Positions 37,701 to 61,594 of a stretch of 64,000 nucleotides of DNA are shown one piece after another. Each line of letters opens with the position of its first letter. Position 1 is the stretch's first letter. The translations under genes and the position numbers were made by a program. The notes beneath the pieces are model-generated. The model made no database searches. It saw only the letters and a list, made by a program, of their open reading frames with translations, and was not told where the DNA came from. The DNA comes from Raillietiella orientalis (lineage: Eukaryota): positions 2,170,001 through 2,234,000 of the forward strand of contig JAYWIR010000006.1 of assembly GCA_036172245.1 (NCBI GenBank). The letters are read 5' to 3'.

Positions 37701-40700
37701 ACTGTTGCAGTTGTGCGTATTGTCCCAAATTTGCTTTAAACAAAATCTGTTCTTGTCTCAGCTTAATATCTGATGTGCCACCTGTCTGGTGGCCAGCCTA
37801 TTAAACTACTTTTTGGGAGGTGGAGAGGATGTCTGGAGCTTGCTCCTGGAGCTTCCTCTCCTGTCTCCTTTTTGGAAGTGCGCTCAGAGGAACTGCGACC
37901 TCTGCAGGCTTCCTACGCAAACCACTGGGAGATCTCCTGCAGGATTGGACGCAATGGTCCCGGTTATCCATCCTACCCTTTGCTGAAGCACTGTTTGCCC
38001 TCAGGACAAGCAATGACATCAGTCAACCGGCGGGATGGGAGTTATCCTGCAACATTGCAGGAACCAAAGAACTCCTGGACGGCTCCAAGATGAGCGAGTG
38101 AGCGTCGCCATTCCTCGTTGCTGGGCAAAGGGACTCCTTAGTTGTTTGAGTGCAGTGACTTGCGAGACTCTCTTCGGCACTCCGTCAACCCCAAAACACT
38201 GCCACCAACCTGCTGCGGCGCTTCTTCACCGGATGCGGGCTGGAGAAAGGCACCGTGGTCGCAACGAGATGTTGCATCCGTGCCATAGCGACAGTCCGCC
38301 ATGTGCAAGTTCGCGGTGAAGAGAGGCCACCAGCATGACAGTAGCCTTCATGAGGTAGCAGCAAGGTGACCTCACCTGGTAGAAGTCGCCAGGGAGATAG
38401 CCATCATCCAGAGTCGCTTCTAGAAGGAAAGGAACATCTTAAACCAAAGTTCTCTGTCCCCACTCTTCCTCTTTTTTTTTTTTTTTATTTATTGTCCCCT
38501 CCTTCCGTTCCCTACTTTTCGAAAGCCGGCCTGCGTGTCATTGGTCATCCCTGAAGAACTTTTTTTGTGTGTGTGTTTTTGACTTTTTCTTGTTTCTTTT
38601 GAGGGATACTCTTCTTCCCCTCAAACTTGTGCTTTATTTTGTTTTTGCAAAATAAACACCCTGGCGCGACCTGGATAAAACTTCTTCGCGAGTCGACCCG
38701 GTGTGGCAGTACCCCCTGGGGTTGGCTCACTACTCTCCTTTAAGGGAGGGCCTCCACACAATCGCAAAGATCCACGTCGCGTGCTGTTCCGGAGCAGCAG
38801 TTTGCTGCACTGGATGTCGGATGTGAAAGCTGTGACGACAACGAATCGATTTCTCCCGACTGCTAACAGGAAGTGCACGGACAGTTTCGTCTTCTTTTTC
38901 CTGAAAGCCTTCCTTTCTGAAAGTGCATGACAGAATACGCTGCATTTGATACCACGGGCAATATGAACACAGGAAGGAATGCAGCCAGCCCAATTAGGGA
39001 GAAGCAGCGATGGGTGGAAACCAACATGACTGCCATGTGGAAAGCTCGACTTCATCTCTCCTTCCCTGTGCCCGATGTATGCCGAAGCTGACCATTCGAT
39101 CGATCAATGTCAACTCTAGAGTCATCTGAAACAGTGGGGTAGCTGCTCACAAAGATGCTGGAGACCGTCCTGCAACCCACGGTATCTCTAACGAGCAATG
39201 GAAACGAAACGGTGAAAGTTTTCCAGGGCATCGCCCTTGGAAACCCGATTCATGGTTCAGAAGTTTCAGGAATGATGCCAACCTTAAAAGAGCTACTGCC
39301 CAGATGCAGTCTTCCGCAACAACAGCGTCAATCCTTACGGGAAAAAAAATAAAGAGTTGAGAATGTCCCACGAGCGTTCGTAAAGCAAAATGAGTTTTTC
39401 ACCAAGTCCTCCTCGTTCTACGATCATCAATCCCACCGGTTCCAGAGAATCAGATTGATCATGCACACATACCTCCTCCTGCTGGACACCCAGGATGAAG
39501 TCGGTCAATGCACGTACGAGAAAAGGGGTAAAAAGAACAAAAAAAAGGGGCTTCGTTTCGAATGCTGGCGTCTTCTTGGTCTCGTGATACATGCCTTGTA
39601 CAGAGGTCTACTTTCGATTCTCGAAGTACTGAGGAAATTAATAAAGTTGCAGAGAGTTGCAGCCCCCGTTGGTCCTGATTTCAATAAAGGCCATGAATCT
39701 TCCGTCTGGTTGATGATTTAACGATTTTCCGATATTTGCTGATTCTCTGGCTTCGCCTTACATGTAAATCTTGCTGGTCCCCTCTTGCATGACCCGTGCT
39801 CCAACACACCATCCTTTTCTCTCTGTCGTGTTCTTCCTAATCTGGCAGTAATATCGTTTGCACTTCGAACCAAAGGGACCGAAACCGAACTTCTTCCTTG
39901 TGCAGACGTGCCTCCTGTCTGATGAGGGACTCTCGAATTCATGGGAATCCCTCAAGGGAAACAATGAGAACGCTCTTACAAGAAGGAACGAATGCGTCGA
40001 AACATAGGATAACTTCATTGAATTCATTTGCAATGCTGTAACACATTTAGGGTAAAGTCTGGGGAAGCTCCTCATCGAGGAAAGACGTGTCTATCCCAGA
40101 ACGAATATACCCATGCAAAGACACAGAATTCGCAAGTGGGCTAATATTATGCGCTGCATTCACGAAGGAAAATTCCATCTATTCGTGGTTGCCATGACTT
40201 CACTGGAAAAATTCAAAGTCATTACTACGCGCGTTTTGTTAATTTCTTACAAATATGGAATGACGTTAATCCCACTCACATGTTTCGACAAAGATCTGAA
40301 CTAACCACAAAGATTCTAAGCTGGAGCAAAATGCAAATTCCACGCTCTCCGATATGTTGGTTGCATATTACACTGGCAAGATGCTTCTCTCGAATCTTCT
40401 GCAAACGATGAATCCAAAGCAAAAGTAATTATAATATGAAATATGAAGGGTAGCCAATGAATGGGAAGGCTACTTTTGTGCAGAATACTGAGTAGGAGGG
40501 ACTTTTGATTCATACTGCTTCGAGGCAATCCGAAGACAAGAAATATTTCACCACAGGTGATGAAATAGACGACAATAGATGAAACAGAACTGAAGTATTC
40601 CAAGATCTCCTTGAAATGCTTCAGTTCAATATTTAACGCTGCGGCAGAGTAAGTCAAAACATTTCAACAAGACGAAGATACGGAGAATAGCGATGTTAAT

Positions 40701-41389
40701 TTGACCGTAAAAGAATGATGGAAAACCGTATTAAGTTTGTTCACGAATTTATATTTACAAATTACATTCACCGTACCCCACTTAATTCACATGGGGAGGA
40801 AAGAAGCTCAACAGCAACCATTTAAAGTATATTGGAGCATGTTGTTATTTGGCTCATCATACATTAAGCTCATTTGTATATGTGGCATACATGATGACAT
40901 TAAGGGGAGAAAAAATGTGCAACAAATTAAAAGTGTTGCTTTAGAATAATAATGATGAACTAAGGGAAAAAAATCAGAATTATGTTGAGTTTCCTTTTAA
41001 AATGAAAAGAATATTTCTCTTATATATTCCAGTGCCATGAGCAGCAATTTTCCAGGTATTCATGTGTACAAGTCACTCTTCATGGATTCATAAAAAAAAC
41101 ACACACACACACATATAAAAGATCTAAAACTCATTTAAAATAATTCAAACTAAGATGATCAAAACCAAACGGGGTTGATGTTTTGCTATATAAATGAAAT
41201 GAAAAACCATAGTCAAACCTACAAATAAACTGAGATCTGAATTGCACACGGAGAGTGTGTTTATCACTCGGATGTGTATTAAAATTTTTACAATAAAATT
41301 TCATAATAAAGTCTGTGAAGTATGCTCAGGCAGAATATGTGGTTCTGCCTGTCCTGGGACACTTGCCGTTACCGGCCCGCAGGCCGGTG

Positions 41390-42175
41390 AGGTCACGCTG
41401 GGACCCGAAAGATGGTGAACTATGCCTGGCCAGGACGAAGCCAGAGGAAACTCTGTTGGGGGTCCACAGCGATCCTAACGTGCAAATTGGTCGAAAGATG
41501 AATCGAACCATCTAGTTGCTGGCTCCCTCCGAAGTTTCCTTCAGGATAGCTGGAACAGAAAAAGGACGAAGTCTCATCCGCTAAAGTGAGAGATTAGAGG
41601 CCTTGGGGCCGAAATGACCCCAACCTATTCTCAAACTTTAAATGAGCGAGAAGTCCGGCTTGCTTGAAAGCTGAAGCTCGAACTGTCGGATCCATGAGCG
41701 CCCAGTGGGTCCATTTTGGTAAGCAGACTGGCTCTGTGGGATGAACCAAACGTTGGGTTACGGCGCCCGATGCGGCGCTCATCAGATCCCATGAAAGGTG
41801 TTGGTTGCTATGGACAGCAGGACGGTGGCCATGGAAGTCGGAATCCGCTAAGGAGTGTGTAACGACTCACCTGCCGAAGCAACTGGCCCTGAAAATGGAT
41901 GGCGCTCAAGCGTCGAGCCTGCGCCCAACCGCCGGGACAGAGCCGTTCCTGCGTTCCGGGCGCGTTGCGGAGGAACAGCAGGTTCCTCAGGTTCCGGCGA
42001 GAAGGAGGGTCGCGACATTGCGCGCAGAAGGGTTTGAGCGGGAGCTCGCCTGGAGCCGCCGTCGGCGCAGATCTTGGTGGTAGCAGCAACTACTCCAGCG
42101 AGATCCTGGAGGTCTGATGTGGAGGAGCGTTTCCATGCGAACAGCCTCTGAGCATGGTTCAGTCGATACTAAGTC
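41390..42175 (+). pseudogene. 28S rRNA: Isolated 28S (LSU) rRNA fragment, rRNA pseudogene
   Basis: Conserved LSU blocks GACCCGAAAGATGGTGAACTATGCCTG, ACCTATTCTCAAACTTTAAATG, CAGCAGGACGGTGGCCATGGAAGTCGGAATCCGCTAAGGAGTGTGTAAC, GCAGATCTTGGTGGTAG. Only ~0.8 kb, AT-rich non-rDNA flanks, a ~20-nt deletion near 41493 and substitutions in normally invariant positions. Confidence 0.95.
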
Positions 42176-44018
42176 CCCGGAGAGTGGGGTTATGCGTGTT
42201 TTTCAGGTCATACCTGTTTTGTATATTTTGAGGTATTCCTCTAAGAAACAAATAAATGCGTGCTTACCCTCAAAACCAAAACGGTTCCTAAATTTCAGTT
42301 TTAGTATTTCAGTGGAGTCCTCGAGAAGTACTTCCCGAAAATCACTTAAGGGCGTTTTTTGTCACGTCTTTAAGAGCTACTAAAAGGGTTTTTAATAGGT
42401 TTTAAAGACTTGCCAAGAAACGCTCTTTTTAGACATATTTTTATAATTTAGACAGCTATTTTGATAATGCCATTTGAAATCAAAATTTATAGCAATTATG
42501 ATATCACTGTTAAAAAATTCGAAGATCACTTTATCTTGTATTCTTTATTCTCTTATTCTTCTATTCTTTTTGTATGTGAGCGAATAAACCTTTATTTTAA
42601 AAAAATTCCAGATGTCTAAACGCAAAAAGCGGAAACAGAATTAATAAATCGAAAAAAAAAAAAAAAAAAACACTTGCACAATTCTGAGATACCCTAAAGA
42701 CTGTGATTTTTATTTTTATTTTTTGATTTATACTAATCTTGCAATCTGCACAGCTAATGTAGATTTTATATTCCAGGCACAGAAGAAAACAAAGGAAGAA
42801 AACATCTAATCTGACATTTATTTGAGAAACCCAGCGAGTGTCATCTTTTTCTTGGGCTTCATCGCTGGATCTTGGCACTCCAGTCTTTGGCTACAAGCTG
42901 AATATCAGAAGGATGCTGCCAATTTGTGGTTGCACTCCTTCTGTTGATGGTTTTTGTTTCCGTAAAGATGGATTTTTTCTTTTTTTTTCCTCCCCTCTCC
43001 CCCCCCCCCCCAATTAATTGCATTTCCTGATTATCCCACAAATCTTGATGTAAATTGACCACAGGAACATAACTCGAGTCGAATTAATCTACCCAGAAGT
43101 ATGCAAGGCAATCATAACTCAGTAAATCTTTTATATCTGATCAGAAAAAAATCATCAGTCCGTGAGGGATCCCCCACAAGTATGAAACCAAATTAACAAG
43201 TAAAAAAAAATTCCGATTTGCTAACGATGGGTGTCCAATTGAATCGAGTAGAAAATCCTGAAGACTTTTCAATTTGATTAGTCAAAGGTTTCTTAACTTT
43301 ATTGCATTCCGTCAGAATGTGTCCTCTTTACTGCCCAACTGTGGACATTCTTCTTCTTCACGTACACGTGAAGTACCTTCTCCTACTCTTCTCCCTCTGA
43401 TATCCTATTTGAAAAGGATGGATCCCTACTGGGAAAATTGCAAATGCTTCCCAAGTCCTCATTCCCGATTCCAAAGGTCGAATTCTAAAGAACAGTGGGC
43501 CGGTGTCGGGGCCGTTTCAAATCTGGTTACCAACATTCACCCCGAAATGTCTGTTCCGTAGAAATAGCTGGAAACTCACAGGCATTTCTTGGATTCGACC
43601 GAAGCAACATAAACCAGTTTCGAATGATGCAGACTCCCTCTTGCACCCACATAAGATTACATGGTTTTCTTGCTACGCTTTGTACCAAGAAATAATAAAG
43701 AGGAAAAAAAAAAATTCTTTTTTTTTTTCCTTTTGATTATTTGGTACAAATACTTAGTAAAAAAAAGGAATTGGTGAGAGGAGAAAAAAAACTATTGGGA
43801 GGCATGCTCTTGCGTTTCCACGAAGACCCAAACGAAAGTGGACCGACAGCAATCGCCTAACTTCGAATCTGAATTTTCCCAATCCGAATTTTTCCCTTTG
43901 GTCTGTTTGCCCGTTTGAGGGCATCGAGGAGGAAGTTACCAAGGCAACCCCTCTCACAGCTCCTTGCAAAAATGTAACATTTGTGCCGAAAACCACCGTT
44001 GTAAACATTTTTTTTCTT

Positions 44019-53318: not shown

Positions 53319-55124
53319 TATGACAGTAAATATGTTTAAAAAAATTTAACGTTTATATTGAGATCAATAACAAGATAAACAGATTCTCTACAACAACGCT
53401 AAGCATAGCACGCAACAGCGTTTCTCAAACGGAAACGAATGATGACAGGATAATTAATTGTTCATGTGCATATGCTGTAAATATTGACAAAACAAATTCA
53501 ATTTACATTCAAATAACCAAATATAAATTGTTACAGAAAGTAGATTTTCTAAAACTATAATTTTTCATATAGCATCTAGCTAAATGTTAGGAAACACGTT
53601 TAGGATTTGAAATTACAAAAACCGCGAGTAATTTCTTTTTCCTGAGGAAATTCTTATGAAAATAAATTTTGTATTTAAAATGTGTACATTTAAGCCATAG
53701 AATGGCATAATATTTACTGTAGATTTTCATTGATGCACATAATTTTGTATAATGATGTATGCATTCATTCATGATTATGGTGAACATTTGAAACACCAAT
53801 GTGTCAAAAATGAACTAACAAGGCATTGAAAGGGCATGAATCAGGCAAATTAAGAATAATTTTCTCAAAACAGGGAAGCAAGATTTTTTGCATCCTTAGT
53901 CAAAAGAATGTTAGATCCAATCAATTTATTTTTCCAAGACAAAAAGGTATTTTAAATGTCATCGTGATATTGCTCGAAATGCATTTCTTTCTTCCAGCAC
54001 AACTACAAAGTGCCAACTGCCCGAAGTAACTCATAATTAGGCAGCATGCTATAAAGAATAACTTAGTATACTTTCACATAGCAGCAGCTTGAGAAAGTAA
54101 CCAAGAAATCGGTATATACTAATCCGTAGATTATTGATAGAGATTATTGATCACTGAATCCCATCTTAAGATCAGGAAGATAATATGTGCATATTCTACT
54201 TCCCTCCAAGAGAGATTTGGATTACAACATGAAACTCTTTTGCGCAACTGCTTAATAGTCCAAACTGTTGCTGCTTTCATTTATGAAATGCCAAGATTCA
54301 GCATAGCAAGCAACTTGATAGCAGAGAAGCCACCTACAACCATCCTATTCTGAAAAGGCAACAGCACTGGGCGTTTCAGTTCATTCTCAACTTTTATTTT
54401 GTCGAGACCATTCCCTTTATTGACCACTTTAAGCTTACTCCTCAAAACGTTCCCCCGGCATCATTCTAACCACAAGAGAAGATTCTTATGAACCACTTTG
54501 GCTCTGCGTATGTGTAATGCTGCTTTCCTTTCCTTGTTTCATTGGATTTTATGACTTGAAAACTCATAAGCATGTACTTCTTCACCTGGACATTGACAGA
54601 ATAATTCCTCCTCGTCTGATCGAGACCGGCCAAGTCATCTCTTCGTCAGAGAAGTCCAAAAAATCTTATTACAAAAACAAACAAGTTTGCGCTTTTCAAA
54701 ATAAGTCAGGCTGATGCTACGAATCCTTAAGTACCTTATGGGTCATCTCTCTTCATCTTTACTTTGCGTTGTTTCTGTTCATCACGGAGCGACTTCTGTA
54801 TCATAATAAAATCCCAAGAAACTCAACGGGAAAAAAAGTTCTTTTGACTCCCGAGATTTTTTCTATCATTGCAAGATTCTTATCGGAAATAGGAATTCCG
54901 AAAACTTTTTTCCGGCCCACTTTATGTTCAGAAGCCATGACTTGTCCAAACGCATGCATATTCCTTCATTTCTAATTTCGCATGCACACTTGGCAACAGA
55001 TGGTTTCGAACGACACGCATTAGACACATGGCATCTACTTTCTTTATGAGCGTTTTTTATTATTATTTTTGTTGAAGTTGAATACGTTATTTTAACATAC
55101 GGCGCGCTGACTCTTAATAGAAAT

Positions 55125-55697
55125 TTATCTGATACACATTTGACTAGAAAGTGCTACTGAAGAGAATTTCATTTTAGGAAACACACTGGGAACCAACGTA
55201 ACAACCGGGGAATGGATCTTAATCTGCCTGATGTGCGTATCACGTCCATTCTGATGGTTGCTAATCACTGCTATTTGCACCATAAATGTACGGATCGGCT
55301 TTCCATGGGCGTTTTTCAGGGGAATCATTACCCATCCAGTGGGCTCCATTAGATCTACAACTTCAATCTCTTGCAAATCATTAAAATGGGTGCCAGAACG
55401 AATGGAAATCCGATTAGGTGTATAGCTCTCATCATTCTTGTACTCCGCAAACAAGAATATGTCACAGATTGTTGTTTTTTTGTGGAACTGAATATTGACA
55501 AGATGAGGTTGGGGTCCATCTGACTGCCAATAAGTGTCCAAAGCATCATCTCTTAGCTGATTCACTCCAAACCCTGGCTTGCAGGAAGATAGACTCCACA
55601 CAGCCTGGTTCCCCACTTCTCGCACTTCTCCCGTGCGTTCCAAATCGCAAGGATCCATATAAGTAATGATTCCTCTACTGCTCACACTATTATTCAT
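55125..55697 (-). CDS. ANAPC10: Anaphase-promoting complex subunit 10 (Doc1), intronless CDS, 190 aa
   Basis: VREVGNQAVWSLSSCKPGFGVNQLRDD..TYWQSDGPQPHLVNIQF...DESYTP...NHQNGRDTHIRQIKIH and the C-terminal IR tail; first ATG at 55697 (the ORF track starts at an upstream TTG). Confidence 0.98.
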   Translation of the reverse strand: MNNSVSSRGIITYMDPCDLERTGEVREVGNQAVWSLSSCKPGFGVNQLRDDALDTYWQSDGPQPHLVNIQFHKKTTICDIFLFAEYKNDESYTPNRISIRSGTHFNDLQEIEVVDLMEPTGWVMIPLKNAHGKPIRTFMVQIAVISNHQNGRDTHIRQIKIHSPVVTLVPSVFPKMKFSSVALSSQMCIR

Positions 55698-55710
55698 ATC
55701 GTCCAATGAC

Positions 55711-55730
55711 CTACAAAATTTGATTTTATT
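55711..55730 (-). promoter_or_regulatory. AATAAA overlapping the RPP30 stop, followed by a 3' splice-acceptor-like site upstream of APC10
   Basis: Minus strand reads GAA TAA AATCAAATTTTGTAG|GTCATTGGACGAT ATG; AATAAA at 55730-55725, AG at 55712-55711. Confidence 0.6.
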
Positions 55731-56875
55731 CTACATCTTCCACAACACTGCTGATCTCTTTAACCACCCACTGTTCCCCCGGCTTCAGATCATTAATGGT
55801 TTGCATCATTGTCACACACTTGGCAGATTTGCGACTTTCTACAAGCACATATCATTCTTTCTGAAAAACATTCTGAATACATACGTCCATGCAGAATTGC
55901 TTTTCTAGGATTGGCCACAATAGCATCTTGTGCCAATTGTTCATTTAGTCCAAATAAACTGCTACTTAGATTTCTTTAAGAAAAGTATTACAGTCTTTAC
56001 ACTTTAAAAGGATACAGGTTAATGACATCATAAGGTCCACGTAAGTCACTGGGACACCTAGCACCACTTGAAATAATGATTTGCTACATGACACATTTTT
56101 CAAACAGATGAGAAAAAACGATAAAAAAAAAAAAGGATCCTACCTTGCCATTAGCTATCTGATTCAAGGATTGAGCTAATGAAATTGTGTTCTGACATGC
56201 TGATGAAGATGACAAAACAGGACTGTAACACAGCTCCACATGGATCCCACGTCTGATCACCTGGGAATACTGCCCACGGGAAAAGTATAAAAACCTCTGT
56301 GCCTCTAGAGTAATAATATCAATAGGAAGTGTGGTAGCTGCCATCTGAAAGAACATTTTCATTGCATCCAATTGGATCTTTGTCTAACCCCTAAGATAGA
56401 TGCTGTCAATGGTTCCACAGCCAAAATATCATAAAGTTCGATGGTTTTGTCTCGCTGCTACAAGGAGTTTTAAGCAGCAAGATGATTCCCTACAGACCAG
56501 CTTATAAGCTTTGTCATCATGTTGCAGCTGCACTGTCAGTCGTTGCAGTATGTTAGGAAGTTGCCTTGCATTTGGAGGCTGCCAACTTTTAATCTCATCT
56601 GGGCTCAATGATAAATCAACAGGTGGTGGCACACTGATAGGTGTGTGCATACTACCCTCTGCTTTACGTTTCTTACTGGTACTACCCAAATGGGAATCAC
56701 TGATGACTGTATTCACTACTACTGTATGATAGCCCACTGAAAATGACCATTCAAACATCTGAGTAACAATGATGCAGATACCTTCTATGGCTTTTCTGAT
56801 CAGCTTTTTACATTCCAGATTGTCCTGGGATGCACTACATTGCAGTGCAAGATCACAGAAACCAAATTCTCCCAT
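55726..56875 (-). CDS. RPP30: RNase P/MRP protein subunit p30 (~287 aa; exons 56782-56875, 56498-56736, 56389-56457, 56144-56344, 56016-56083, 55885-55964, 55726-55838)
   Basis: FCDL, GYHTVVVN, ILQRLTV, LYDILAVEP, RGIHVELCYSP, GKQIIISSGA...LRGPYDVINLSSLFGL, AILHGQSRK match the Rpp30 family; exons total 864 nt in frame; introns 40-60 nt. Confidence 0.95.
55965..56015 (-). other. U12-type GT-AG minor intron in RPP30 (51 nt; 54 nt if the next AG is used)
   Basis: 5' end GTATCCTTTT, branch-like TTTCTTAA shortly before AAG, no polypyrimidine tract; removal restores YDVINL-SSLFGL. Confidence 0.85.
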
Positions 56876-56989
56876 AAGGAACTCTAAAACCAAATGGGAC
56901 AAAAAAAACGAAAAATTATTTCTGCATTACACTTTAGATCACAAAATAATATTCATTTCCCATCATCCCGTTCCATTATTCCCAACTGT

Positions 56990-58802
56990 CTACAACCCCA
57001 ACTTCTGGCTGGAGAATAATATCACATTTTCCTGGAAATCTTTACATAATTCAATCCCTGCCTTCTTGGCAGCCAGATAGGCACAACCTAAAGCAGGTTC
57101 CTTGACTCTAAACATGAAAATCTGCTCAAAGGAAAGGGGACTTGTGGCTAAAGCTGCAAAAAAACGTGGCTGAAGATATTCCCAACTATCCCATACTTTG
57201 CCAATGCACAGAACTGGCAGGTCTTTCTGCAAAAACTTAACACAGAGGTCCTTTTGAATAAGTCTCTTGCAAACCTTTTTGGCAGAAGTGGCTAGCGGAA
57301 CTAGCATACGTCCTAATTCCCAACCAGCTTCACCTAAGAGCCACTGGCTGAAAGCATCACCTTGCTTTGCACACAAAGCAATCATTTCAGTGAAGGAAGC
57401 ATAATGAGCTTTGTCAAAATTGGAGAACCAGTGAGGCAACATCCCCTCCCTGATAAAAAAAACACTATTGGAAGTTTCAATCGCTTCTTGCCTCCTCTGG
57501 ATTTTGAAATGCTCTAGCATCTTGTCATGTAACAGTTTTGTGGAGAATGGCAGCATTGTGACACCTTCTGCTTCTTCAAATATAGTCATGACAGCCTGAT
57601 TAGCAATCCACCAGGCTGATATGAATGACAATCTGATTCACACTCAGTTCGAGTGGTTCAGCTACTCACCACTACCCTTATCACCAATCATATTCCCCCA
57701 TCCACCACATGACTGAGCAACTGTGCCATCTTTCCCCAGTAAAACAGAGTTCGATCCTGTGCCACTAATAATCACAATTCCTCCTATTCTCTGGATTGAA
57801 TTTCTGATATTGATATCTTTTCTCACCATTAGGAATAACTAATTCTGCATGTCCCAGAATATCATTAGACAAATGGTAAGCATCAGCTAAATCAGGGGCT
57901 TTTTCCTTAAGGGTATCCAATAACCGGGCATTTGTTTTTGGTTCGTTGCAGCCACTGAGTGACAAACCCTTAACAAACCAACCAAATTAATTTCACGGCT
58001 AAAAATCGAGGAAGAGTATAATTTCTGAAATTATGAAGATTCTGACTTCACACGAATAACAATTTAATAACAATCTTGAATAACAATTTACCAATGACTT
58101 CAAGATGATACGAGATTTGAACTTAGCAGCTATCTCATTTTTGGAAGACTGTACTAGATCAATCAATGCATCTGCACATTTTTCAATGCCTAAAAGCTGA
58201 AATTTATAACAATTAAATTAGATCAAACGAAGGCAAAAACTGATATTTTATTTCCAAACAAGTAACATGAAACTGAGTTCCAAATGACTTGGCATTTTAT
58301 GATACAAAAAAGAAAAGGAAAGAAAATAGTTTGAGTGAAAACACTGCACAAATAGGCATAATCTACAAAACGAACAGTCTACTGGTCTGTCTAATGAAAT
58401 CTACAAAATGTAATAAACCTACGCCTAGAATTTGCCATCTACACACTCTTGAAGAAGCCACGAAAGTCTTTGACGAACAGATGTATTCGGTAGTTGATCA
58501 TTCAATCAAACAAAAGGAGACGCATTTCAACGCATCAAGAATCGGGAAATCCCGCAGTTGCAGCTCGTTGCTATTCACATCACTGGAGAAACGTGCAAGA
58601 TTGCATGCATTCATCCTTACCCAGTGGTTTGTTCCCCCGGTATGCTTGCTGCAGACCTGGTTGCCATTTTCGTCCACCACCAACAAATGGGTCGACGTCG
58701 CCCCTCTGGGTTGAGGGTTCGCAGGTACACACCAAGACCTTGTAGGGCTTGCACTTACCCGTTGATGCCTCCAAATACGTGCTTCTCGGGAAAAACATCC
58801 AT
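56990..58802 (-). CDS. NAGK: N-acetyl-D-glucosamine kinase-like protein (exons 58759-58802, 58621-58705, 58092-58196, 57827-57968, 57670-57783, 57492-57615, 57275-57449, 56990-57226; last two introns are in frame and inferred)
   Basis: [85 protein letters not shown] match the animal NAGK pattern. Confidence 0.93.
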
Positions 58803-61594
58803 GATGACCCTGCCACGTTTCCTCCTTCCCTCTTCTTGATGGATTCCTTCTTCCCGCTCATTCGGCAAAACTCGCGGGAAGGGCGCCTTCCCTGCCCTGA
58901 CCCACGGCAGCCCGCTGGCGCGAACGGCATGCGTTGCCGCAAAACTCTGCAGAGCTTGCACGGGCCAACATGGAAAAGACTGCATGGAGGGCAAATGCTA
59001 TGAAAACGAAGGGTCACGAAAATCTGCATGCTGACCTTTGATGAAGGCACCGGAACATTTCATTCGCACTGTGGTGTTGGTTAAAACAAAGCAAAACGAA
59101 ACGAAATTGCAATGGTCACACATAGACTGGGAACGGAGCAGTCAGCAATCAAACCCAAATTCAGTGGCTTTTTGTGCCTGCCACAACAGATGGGAGAGAG
59201 ACTAGTTCTGTTAATACTAAGCTGCCGCCGACTGGCAAACGCAATTTCATTCAAGAATCAACTCACAAGAAGTGAAACTTAAAAGCACAGTTTTGAGGAA
59301 ACCGCTGCAGATCTGGAGTTGAGAGCCATCCGCCTGGACTTTGGGTGCTATCAGGTTCTACGGAGCCGGGAGTCTTTTTCATTTTTGGGTTTTGAAAAAT
59401 GGAATGTCTTTCTTTCCAGTACTTCCATCCCTCTTCACGGAGTCGGAAATTCCGCTCGGAGACTCCATTGCTCTCAGGATGCCTAGCAGATCCGAAGAAA
59501 TTCCATTTTTTCATGGGTGCCGGAGGGCTGCCGTTCTCTGAATTCAAAAACACGGCATGTTTTCTCTCCGCTGGAGCCAATCAGTGTCACAGGGATATTG
59601 AGCAATAGGAGTCGTAGGCGGGGCTTCTGGTGCTAAAAACAAGCATTTAAAGGGAGAAGACTGAAGCCGGTTCTAAATGTCTGGACATCTCGACACGGAT
59701 CAGGGCTGCAGTTCCGGCAGGGTTCTCGACGCTCTCGTCTCCGAAAAACACGCAGAAAAAAAAAACACGCATCTGGATAGCTTCCCGCCCCGTCAGCTAT
59801 TCCTGGAAACCCATGGAGGACATGCAGGGAGGGCGCTTAGTGGAGCGTGCTAGGAGTAGGCTGTTCGTTCATCCTGCACCGACTCGCCGTCCGATGAACC
59901 CCTCTGCTTTTCCTTAGAGACGAGGATGACTTCCCTTCTCGGCGACGGACGCTGTCATAGGAACGAGAGAGATCATCGACATTATGCATTCTCTGAGACA
60001 AGCATGGAAGACGTTCCGACCACGCGATTAACGGATGGATGGCTGTGCGGGCAAGGAAGGTGAGGAGCACTGGGATCTTTAACGAGAACAGGAGCGAGAG
60101 ACTTAGAGGGCGCGATCATCTCTCATCCCTCTTCGGGGTGTCCTGCTGCAACTCTTCCTCCGCTTAGGCAGAACCTAATTTTCGAAGGGGAAGACGAAAT
60201 GAGGCGGTTCATTCCCAGTCCTTTCTTCACTTCCTGAAGGTCTTCCGAAAAAACGGGAGCTTCGAAGGATTCGTCCGGATGCCGACAGCTGCCGATCCGG
60301 CGGCTCGCCGAACTGGAGTCTCCTCTGCTCTCCTGAGGAACTGCAGGCTTCTCTTCTATTCCCTTTTCTTCCCGGTGATCTCAACGTTCCGCTCTGGATC
60401 TCTTGCAGTCTCCGCCTAAGCCATCTTCTCCACAAAGCCTAATATGGAAGAAGGAAAGGAAAATATCGGAGAAGGAAAATCCCAACAACTTTCGGTTCTC
60501 CTTGCATCCCTCCTCTCCTTCTGGGACCGAGCTTCATCCCTACCCTCAGCCATCCACCGTGCTCTTCTGAAACGCCGGCTCGATACCCTGGCATTTCCCT
60601 TCTCTTCTTCCGGCCGTGGTGTTGCGGGATCCAGCAGCCGCTTGTTGAAGGGAGGACAGGAGCGAACACGAAGGATTTAGGCTTCACAGCCTGCAGTTGG
60701 CGACGTTGGAGAGTCCCAACGCCACTGCTGACCGACTCGATGGAGGAGACGATCATGGCGGTCCAGATGCACCCTACGACGCTTGTGCGCAAGAGCCACA
60801 GCGACGTCCACGACGGGAACAGTTTCCTTTCTTAAAACTGGCGCGCAGCAACGTGAGTCAATAGACTGCTCGATACTTCCTCTGAAGTGAGGGTGAGCGA
60901 GCGGTCCCCTCTCCGCTCTGCCCGCCTCCCTCGCTGAACGGTGGGGAGCGTCCCGCCAGAACCGCGGCAGGTGCGGCGAGTCCACCGAGCCCGGCACCTG
61001 TTACGGGACGAATTCCCTTCCCTTTCCGCGAGGCACGGGAGCGTCCAGAGGAGTCCCCCTCCAGCTCTCCCGAGGGCACCGCAAGAGAGCTGCCGCCCAG
61101 AAGGCGCGGCGTCCCTAGGACCTCTGCCTCCGGTTGAAACCGGCGTATCGGGAGGTCCACTCTCTCGTCGCATCCACAGAGAGAAGGGCGCCTCGATGAC
61201 CCGAGCTGCAAAGGTGAGCAGCTTCTCCTCATCTCTGACCAGGTCCACAGAGTCCCTTATCCCACCTGATGGACGCTTCACCCCATCCCCTTCCCGAAAC
61301 TGCGGGGTTCCTTCTTTGTCCTTTTTTTGCCTTTTCATGCCACTCAGCACCACCGTTGTTGCCGGCGTTTCCTCCTTCCTGCGCGTGGAGGAATTCTAGA
61401 CTACCTAGGATATGGTGGGAATCCTGCTTGTTCCCTGCAGCGTCTAGTCGCACGAAACGCCCCGGGAGCAGCCGAGCGTTGGTTCCTCCGCAGCGCCCCG
61501 CGGCGGCTCCCCGCGGACGCGCGCGCGCGACGATGCCGGCAACGAGCGGAGAAGCCGGGATCCGCGCGCGAAAACCATCGACCACGGGGCTGCA

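Follow-up and report, generated by a model that had tools for sequence, protein, structure and literature searches.

A 28-nt junction between RPP30 and APC10 that may combine a polyadenylation site with a splice acceptor

The gene cluster and its 28-nt junction

The stretch of DNA analysed here (the window, 64,000 nt) carries a NAGK-like gene, RPP30 and APC10 head to tail on the minus strand, with gaps of 114 and 28 nt. The features, by window position, are as follows.

56990..58802, minus: NAGK-like gene that probably opens the cluster (DP model; weak PF01869 match on one exon, E 0.046)
56876..56989, minus: NAGK-RPP30 spacer, 114 nt, without AATAAA and without a good donor
55726..56875, minus: RPP30 coding region, 7 exons, 287 aa (model; PF01876 on exon 4)
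56875-56782, 56736-56498, 56457-56389, 56344-56144, 56083-56016, 55964-55885, 55838-55726, minus: RPP30 exons
55965..56015, minus: RPP30 intron 5, U12-type GT-AG, phase 2; donor GTATCCTT, branch-like TTCTTAAA 18 nt ahead of the AG
55711..55819, minus: possible cryptic U2 intron, 109 nt, donor 55819, phase 2, predicted in-frame fusion of 451 aa
55710..55749, minus: 40-nt stretch copied at C16:3877108-3877147 (minus), followed there by GAG and A19
55725..55730, minus: AATAAA poly(A) signal (from sequence) holding the RPP30 stop TAA, 55728-55726
55711..55718, minus: acceptor-like TTTTGTAG and inferred RPP30 3' end at 55711/55710 (score 1.7 bits; end of the C16 copy)
55698..55710, minus: putative APC10 5' UTR, 13 nt after the acceptor, in frame with a phase-2 donor
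55125..55697, minus: APC10 (ANAPC10) coding region, intronless, 190 aa (Pfam ANAPC10, E 6e-76)
55056..55061, minus: AATAAA downstream of APC10, where the unit likely ends

RPP30 was identified by the Pfam RNase_P_p30 match on exon 4 (E 1.6e-10) and by end-to-end alignment with nine homologues. Its C-terminus (window 55726-55760) lacked the basic tail present in most of the nine. The gene at 58802-56990 was presumably NAGK, a name given by similarity. The gene finder, which returned 32 rough models, merged NAGK, RPP30 and APC10 into one model.

A search of the 210-Mb genome gave a single APC10 match. A quick tree built from 121 APC10 sequences paired it with the ostracod Notodromas (SH-aLRT 94, on long branches) beside malacostracans, weakly suggesting that the genome lies among crustaceans and belongs to a crustacean-grade arthropod at most. 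The intronless structure could be taken as the mark of a retrogene, a reading that found no support; seven of eight metagenome relatives likewise matched as one open frame. RPP30 was present in none of the eight metagenome loci, which were distant (63-75% identity) and often short.

An earlier note on this DNA had described an RPP30 stop codon embedded in a poly(A) signal and an acceptor just before APC10. Each of its junction coordinates proved correct when rechecked against the sequence: TAA 55728-55726 lies inside the hexamer 55730-55725 on the minus strand, and the spacer 55725-55698 separates the stop from the APC10 ATG by 28 nt. The two genes are unrelated neighbours on the same strand, and lie within 100 nt of each other. 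The only AG of the spacer ends at 55711, which is 14 nt past AATAAA and 13 nt ahead of the ATG at 55697. Nothing but TTTT precedes its GTAG, and the sole TRA branch-like triplet from -28 to -8 of this acceptor is the RPP30 stop TAA itself, which might conceivably serve as its branch point. Exon 7 of RPP30 contains four ATGs upstream of APC10, at 55809, 55806, 55793, and 55736. At the preceding boundary, a strong acceptor ending at 56884 (top 1.3% of background AGs) lies 8 nt ahead of the RPP30 ATG, and all seven GT of the NAGK-RPP30 spacer score -3.1 or lower as donors.

Intron 5 (56015-55965) is the sole phase-2 intron among the six of RPP30 and is of U12 type, in agreement with the earlier note. 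The U12 donor and branch consensus was used here, with the branch site 10-20 nt before the acceptor. The two U12 introns of the window depart from the branch consensus by two mismatches in RPP30 intron 5 and by one in an AT-AC intron of an FKBP12-like gene (window 52489-52414, minus, 76 nt, branch-like TCCTTAAT; frame set by eye). U12-type donor sequences were also seen after the first exon of two SmE paralogues and LSM8.

A second copy of the RPP30 3' end on contig C16

When the genome was searched with RPP30 and APC10 DNA, one other place was found, C16:3877108-3877147 (minus), identical at 40 of 40 nt. It was the sole second match outside low-complexity sequence to a 17-kb window query, whose other match was 30 nt on an A-tract of the window. 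The 22-nt core of the copy had two exact matches in the genome and one unrelated match with one mismatch, and its control had none. The copy lies within exon 7 and the spacer, spanning no intron or exon junction. It ends at the AG or one nucleotide after it (55711/55710), and an A19 tract begins 3 nt further. The sequence after 55710 in the window is not A-rich.

The host site on C16 is A/T-rich and lies at the end of a degraded intronless sequence, which we take to be myosin-18-like, as we do its paralogous copy on contig C28. The two degraded copies (on C16, positions 1-1460 of the piece read) are 85-94% alike. On C28 the site is empty: the same flank follows A7-T-A4 without the insert, and the other strand is T-rich. 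Reverse transcription primed at a T-rich nick, as in L1-type priming, would be expected to leave such an arrangement. Comparison of the C16 flanks with the C28 site revealed no clean target-site duplication; the C16 5' flank aligned to the C28 site more closely than any of 200 shuffles did, yet it was far more diverged than the 3' flank.

Short 5'-truncated processed pseudogenes are products of the LINE machinery. The C16 copy resembles them in being a short fragment of an mRNA 3' terminus that carries an A tail and sits where a T-rich strand could prime, but differs in being only 40 nt long, without an exon junction and without a clean target-site duplication. For a random position, the chance that an A tract of at least 15 begins no more than 5 nt away is about 2e-4 (22 tracts in 299 kb), a figure that the A-rich target raises, and up to 11 of the 19 A could be target-derived. 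By our own arithmetic, the probability that a random duplication from the 17 kb has its end among the 12 nt surrounding 55711 is about 4e-4. The GAG or GGAG linker between copy and A tract is unexplained; as a LINE end, GGAG followed by an A-tail was rejected (six matches against four in the control, with unrelated DNA upstream).

From these features, the C16 copy very probably derives from an mRNA, in a single event. Because the A-tailed copy ends at 55711/55710, poly(A) addition can be placed at the acceptor, which supports an RPP30 RNA 3' end at 55711 or 55710. The suggestion in the earlier note of an RPP30 mRNA with almost no 3' UTR and a poly(A) site coinciding with the acceptor is supported by the copy, indirectly and through this one event. 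The case also illustrates that, where a genome has no RNA data, mRNA ends can be located from retro-inserted fragments. The copy is uninformative on how the APC10 5' end is formed.

Signal strength and similar junctions in the genome

Splice sites were scored with models built from 41 U2-type introns, five from RPP30 and 36 selected by eye among 55 parser calls in seven genes, one of which was reset by hand. The APC10 acceptor, at 1.7 bits, was about the median of true introns: 46% of the 41 curated acceptors scored no higher in a leave-one-out comparison, and 6.9% of 4,910 background AGs scored at least as high. From the background AGs we estimated that an AG of such a score would occur by chance in a 28-nt spacer about one time in ten. 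A TRAH motif from -28 to -8 was found in 29 of the 41 introns, against about half expected by our estimate.

The RPP30 stop was compared with those of Sm/LSm genes, 15 of 18 having a placeable stop. In two of the 15, AATAAA enclosed the stop with the offset seen in RPP30, and nine had AATAAA within 35 nt of the stop, indicating that very short 3' UTRs are ordinary in this genome. Stop-overlapping hexamers and short 3' UTRs are common also in genes that have no near downstream gene. The T fraction after the RPP30 hexamer, 0.25, equalled the lowest among 20 comparison sites, which would make its U-rich element weak; it was nearly as poor at the APC10 terminal site (0.28), and the measure separates little. 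The packing of the junction as a whole exceeds chance; its single motifs do so only modestly and none is strong alone.

Similar boundaries were found elsewhere. In SLC35C1-QARS1, a pre-selected pair with a 36-nt gap, AATAAA starts 10 nt past the SLC35C1 stop, an AG lies 16 nt past AATAAA, and the QARS1 ATG follows 4 nt later. AHCY-EIF2AK1 (C6:1075414-1075503), found unselected, has a gap below 100 nt, the AHCY stop inside ATTAAA, and a strong acceptor 7 nt ahead of the EIF2AK1-like ATG. With RPP30 and APC10, four downstream ATGs therefore have an acceptor-like AG 4-13 nt ahead; the background tails of these acceptors are 6.9% (APC10), 1.3% (RPP30), 12.8% (QARS1) and 2.3% (EIF2AK1). Good donors were lacking nearby at the two window junctions, where donors were scored.

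In the rough models outside the window, two of eight same-strand neighbour pairs, including the pre-selected one, were separated by under 100 nt, and four of eight convergent pairs lay within 305 nt. Since convergent genes are tight too, compaction alone would suffice for the short gaps. Around the 18 Sm/LSm loci, where 120 of 1,024 candidate frames were scanned, each of the seven neighbours identified by Pfam had the opposite orientation. Close head-to-tail arrangement is recurrent in this genome, not general.

Two other observations were made in the window. A TMEM70-like gene (45710-44980, minus; Pfam E 3.5e-20) has an acceptor-like AG about 20 nt ahead of its probable ATG. The GC-rich part of the window contains a 28S rRNA fragment (41383-42434, plus) and a weak U2 snRNA match (37717-37898, plus).

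A candidate operon, its rivals and the search for a leader

We propose that NAGK, RPP30 and APC10 may be transcribed as one unit, in which the RPP30-APC10 boundary would have no intercistronic DNA, all 28 nt being UTR. Cleavage and polyadenylation at 55711/55710 would give an RPP30 mRNA with a 3' UTR of 15-16 nt. Alternatively, the AG at 55711 would receive a spliced leader, giving an APC10 mRNA with a genomic 5' UTR of 13 nt. Because the stop, the hexamer and the likeliest branch point use the same bases, each molecule would yield one product, unless splicing itself frees the RPP30 end. We give about even chances to this reading, with a transcript shared by the three genes and with cleavage/polyadenylation and leader splicing falling on the same few bases; for trans-splicing onto the APC10 acceptor, taken alone, the balance is likewise roughly equal. 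If the acceptor is used, competition would be expected at the junction, as a transcript cleaved there loses both its AG and its branch region (the argument of PMC1488885). We also entertain, as possible but doubtful, a stronger form: one AATAAA-containing element would end the RPP30 frame, signal polyadenylation and provide the branch region, in an arthropod genome whose SL-resolved operons include junctions without an intercistron, the RPP30 end may itself be made by trans-splicing, and the C16 copy would be its fossil. If the proposal is true, each transcript becomes the mRNA either of an RNase P/MRP subunit or of an APC/C subunit.

The C16 copy fits this proposal, an internal promoter and an upstream cis-spliced leader alike, and separates none of them. 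The main rival, which the earlier note had not considered, is that APC10 has its own promoter in the last RPP30 exons or the spacer, with RPP30 cleaved ordinarily at about 55710, the AG incidental or closing a small 5'-UTR intron, and no operon. It is wholly consistent with the C16 copy; the APC10 acceptor is unremarkable, the tight convergent pairs point to general compaction, and compact insect genomes offer familiar cases of promoters that overlap the gene before them. We nevertheless consider it unlikely, as the four exon-7 ATGs would burden an unspliced APC10 leader, the acceptor ahead of the ATG is repeated at RPP30, QARS1 and EIF2AK1, and AATAAA is absent from the NAGK-RPP30 spacer. Upstream of the APC10 acceptor, an average one, a plausible donor lies at a distance of 109 nt, and several more precede NAGK. 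The latter, ahead of the NAGK ATG at 59266 (1.6), 59154 (1.6), 59035 (3.9) and 58901 (1.8), could belong to a non-coding first exon cis-spliced alternatively to 56883 for RPP30 or to 55710 for APC10, needing no leader RNA. Such splicing would involve a 3.3-kb intron across two genes, against 38-72 nt in 40 of the 41 curated U2 introns (some longer introns, among them one of 511 nt in FKBP, are outside this set), and we judge it quite improbable.

Translation of APC10 mainly from a dicistronic RPP30-APC10 mRNA ending at about 55040, by re-initiation across the 28 nt, has a still smaller chance: the weak U-rich element past the RPP30 hexamer (T fraction 0.25) makes read-through plausible, but re-initiation after a 287-codon ORF is inefficient, and the C16 copy has its 3' end at the AG. 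An RPP30-APC10 fusion made by cis-splicing to 55710, which the earlier note had raised, seems very improbable. Its statement that a phase-2 donor joined to 55710 is in frame with APC10 holds, and the intron-5 donor gives an open frame of 418 aa. Use of this U12 donor is unlikely, however, because the acceptor at 55711 has no U12 branch site, the best match ahead of it having five mismatches. Exon 7 provides two more phase-2 GT, both in frame. Donor 55819 (451 aa), overlooked by the earlier note, scores 1.5 against a true-donor median of 2.05 and is plausible, being within the range of true donors, whereas 55771 (467 aa) scores below all 41. The fusion would also skip a W-V-V-K-like motif of exon 7 that is conserved in homologues (Trp in four of nine), the skipped 55830-55750 being matched by one homologue at 56% over 27 aa; PF01876, the RPP30 domain, was found in none of 38 long APC10 proteins, which is weak evidence.

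Two kinds of known operon resemble the proposed shared transcript. The SL1-type operons of the nematode C. elegans are proven to use SL1, and the 3' UTR of their upstream gene carries a long polypyrimidine tract; RPP30 has no such tract, with just TTTT ahead of the AG and a predicted 3' UTR of 15-16 nt. According to Satou 2006 (PMC1488885), these operons have little or no intercistronic DNA and a canonical upstream AATAAA shortly before the trans-splice site, as at RPP30-APC10, where AATAAA lies 14 nt from the acceptor. For the intercistron-less operons of Ciona intestinalis, that paper places poly(A) addition on the G of the acceptor AG and argues that a 3' end formed first would preclude trans-splicing downstream; whether such 3' ends arise by cleavage or by splicing was left undecided there (PMC1488885). 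RPP30-APC10 would be like the Ciona cases in having the upstream poly(A) site at the AG just ahead of the downstream gene, in joining unrelated housekeeping genes, and perhaps in giving mutually exclusive products from each transcript. The differences are that 16 of 18 Ciona cases are without AATAAA (PMC1488885), whereas RPP30 has one overlapping its stop; that poly(A) joins the Ciona AG cleanly, in contrast to the AG or AG+1 end and GAG/GGAG linker of the C16 copy; and that the Ciona SL is known, whereas none was found in the searched part of the present genome. The presence of AATAAA would bring the junction closer to the SL1-type operons than to Ciona.

Intercistrons of 23-30 nt in Oikopleura and of about 100 nt in SL2-type operons of C. 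elegans, as given in PMC1488885 and PMC7986045, are resembled by the spacers of NAGK-RPP30 (114 nt from stop to ATG) and AHCY-EIF2AK1 (below 100 nt). RPP30-APC10 would differ from these operons in that its poly(A) site and acceptor coincide and all 28 nt are UTR. The junction may work like that of a Ciona or SL1-type operon and is a candidate member of this group. Among crustacean relatives, spliced leaders occur in amphipods and copepods, as stated in PMC5111886 and PMC4664967, and operons were unreported in crustaceans with spliced leaders as of 2021, according to PMC7986045. In the open literature, mostly titles and the starts of abstracts, we found neither a crustacean operon with a spliced leader nor a link between RPP30 and ANAPC10. 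Confirmation of the proposal would extend the range of intercistron-less operons from nematodes and tunicates to arthropods. The question of cleavage or splicing becomes testable at this 28-nt junction, which brings together a canonical hexamer, an AG and a possible branch point.

Five attempts to find an SL RNA gene (leader, donor and Sm site) gave none, the DNA directly read being well under 1% of the genome. The U5 genes were of two sequence types, and three genes of one type had a common motif about 60 nt upstream of their start, a candidate snRNA promoter element. A search with this motif for an SL gene gave five places, four of them U5, and a search combining the core of this motif with an Sm site returned 14 matches, fewer than the 25 of the control. 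No SL gene was found near 5S at 20 of 43 loci, where retroelement pieces and one U4 were present. We saw no repeated leader-like 22-mer in C6:3.97-4.01 Mb, a region possibly misplaced, and no leader-bearing retrocopy among 18 Sm/LSm matches. In short-repeat screens of 680 kb, nothing came up beyond the C16 copy and pieces of known snRNA and 5S genes. In 80 small contigs (the first 5 kb or less), the search for an SL gene met only satellites, GC-rich repeats, rDNA and mitochondrial DNA, Rfam being run on 44.

These searches also gave a view of the repeated sequences of the genome. The 5S genes were dispersed as inverted pairs with retroelement-like flanks, without a tandem array. The 12 best U2 matches all lacked the U2 5' end and followed unrelated A/T-rich sequence, in the manner of retroelement target sites, with no intact U2 gene among these 12. 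Tandem repeats of 278, 180, about 1,105, and 2,655 bp in the small contigs matched no RNA family. Contig C360 contained a full 18S rRNA gene, and contig C320 a mitochondrial piece with frames that we take to be ND2- and ND1-like.
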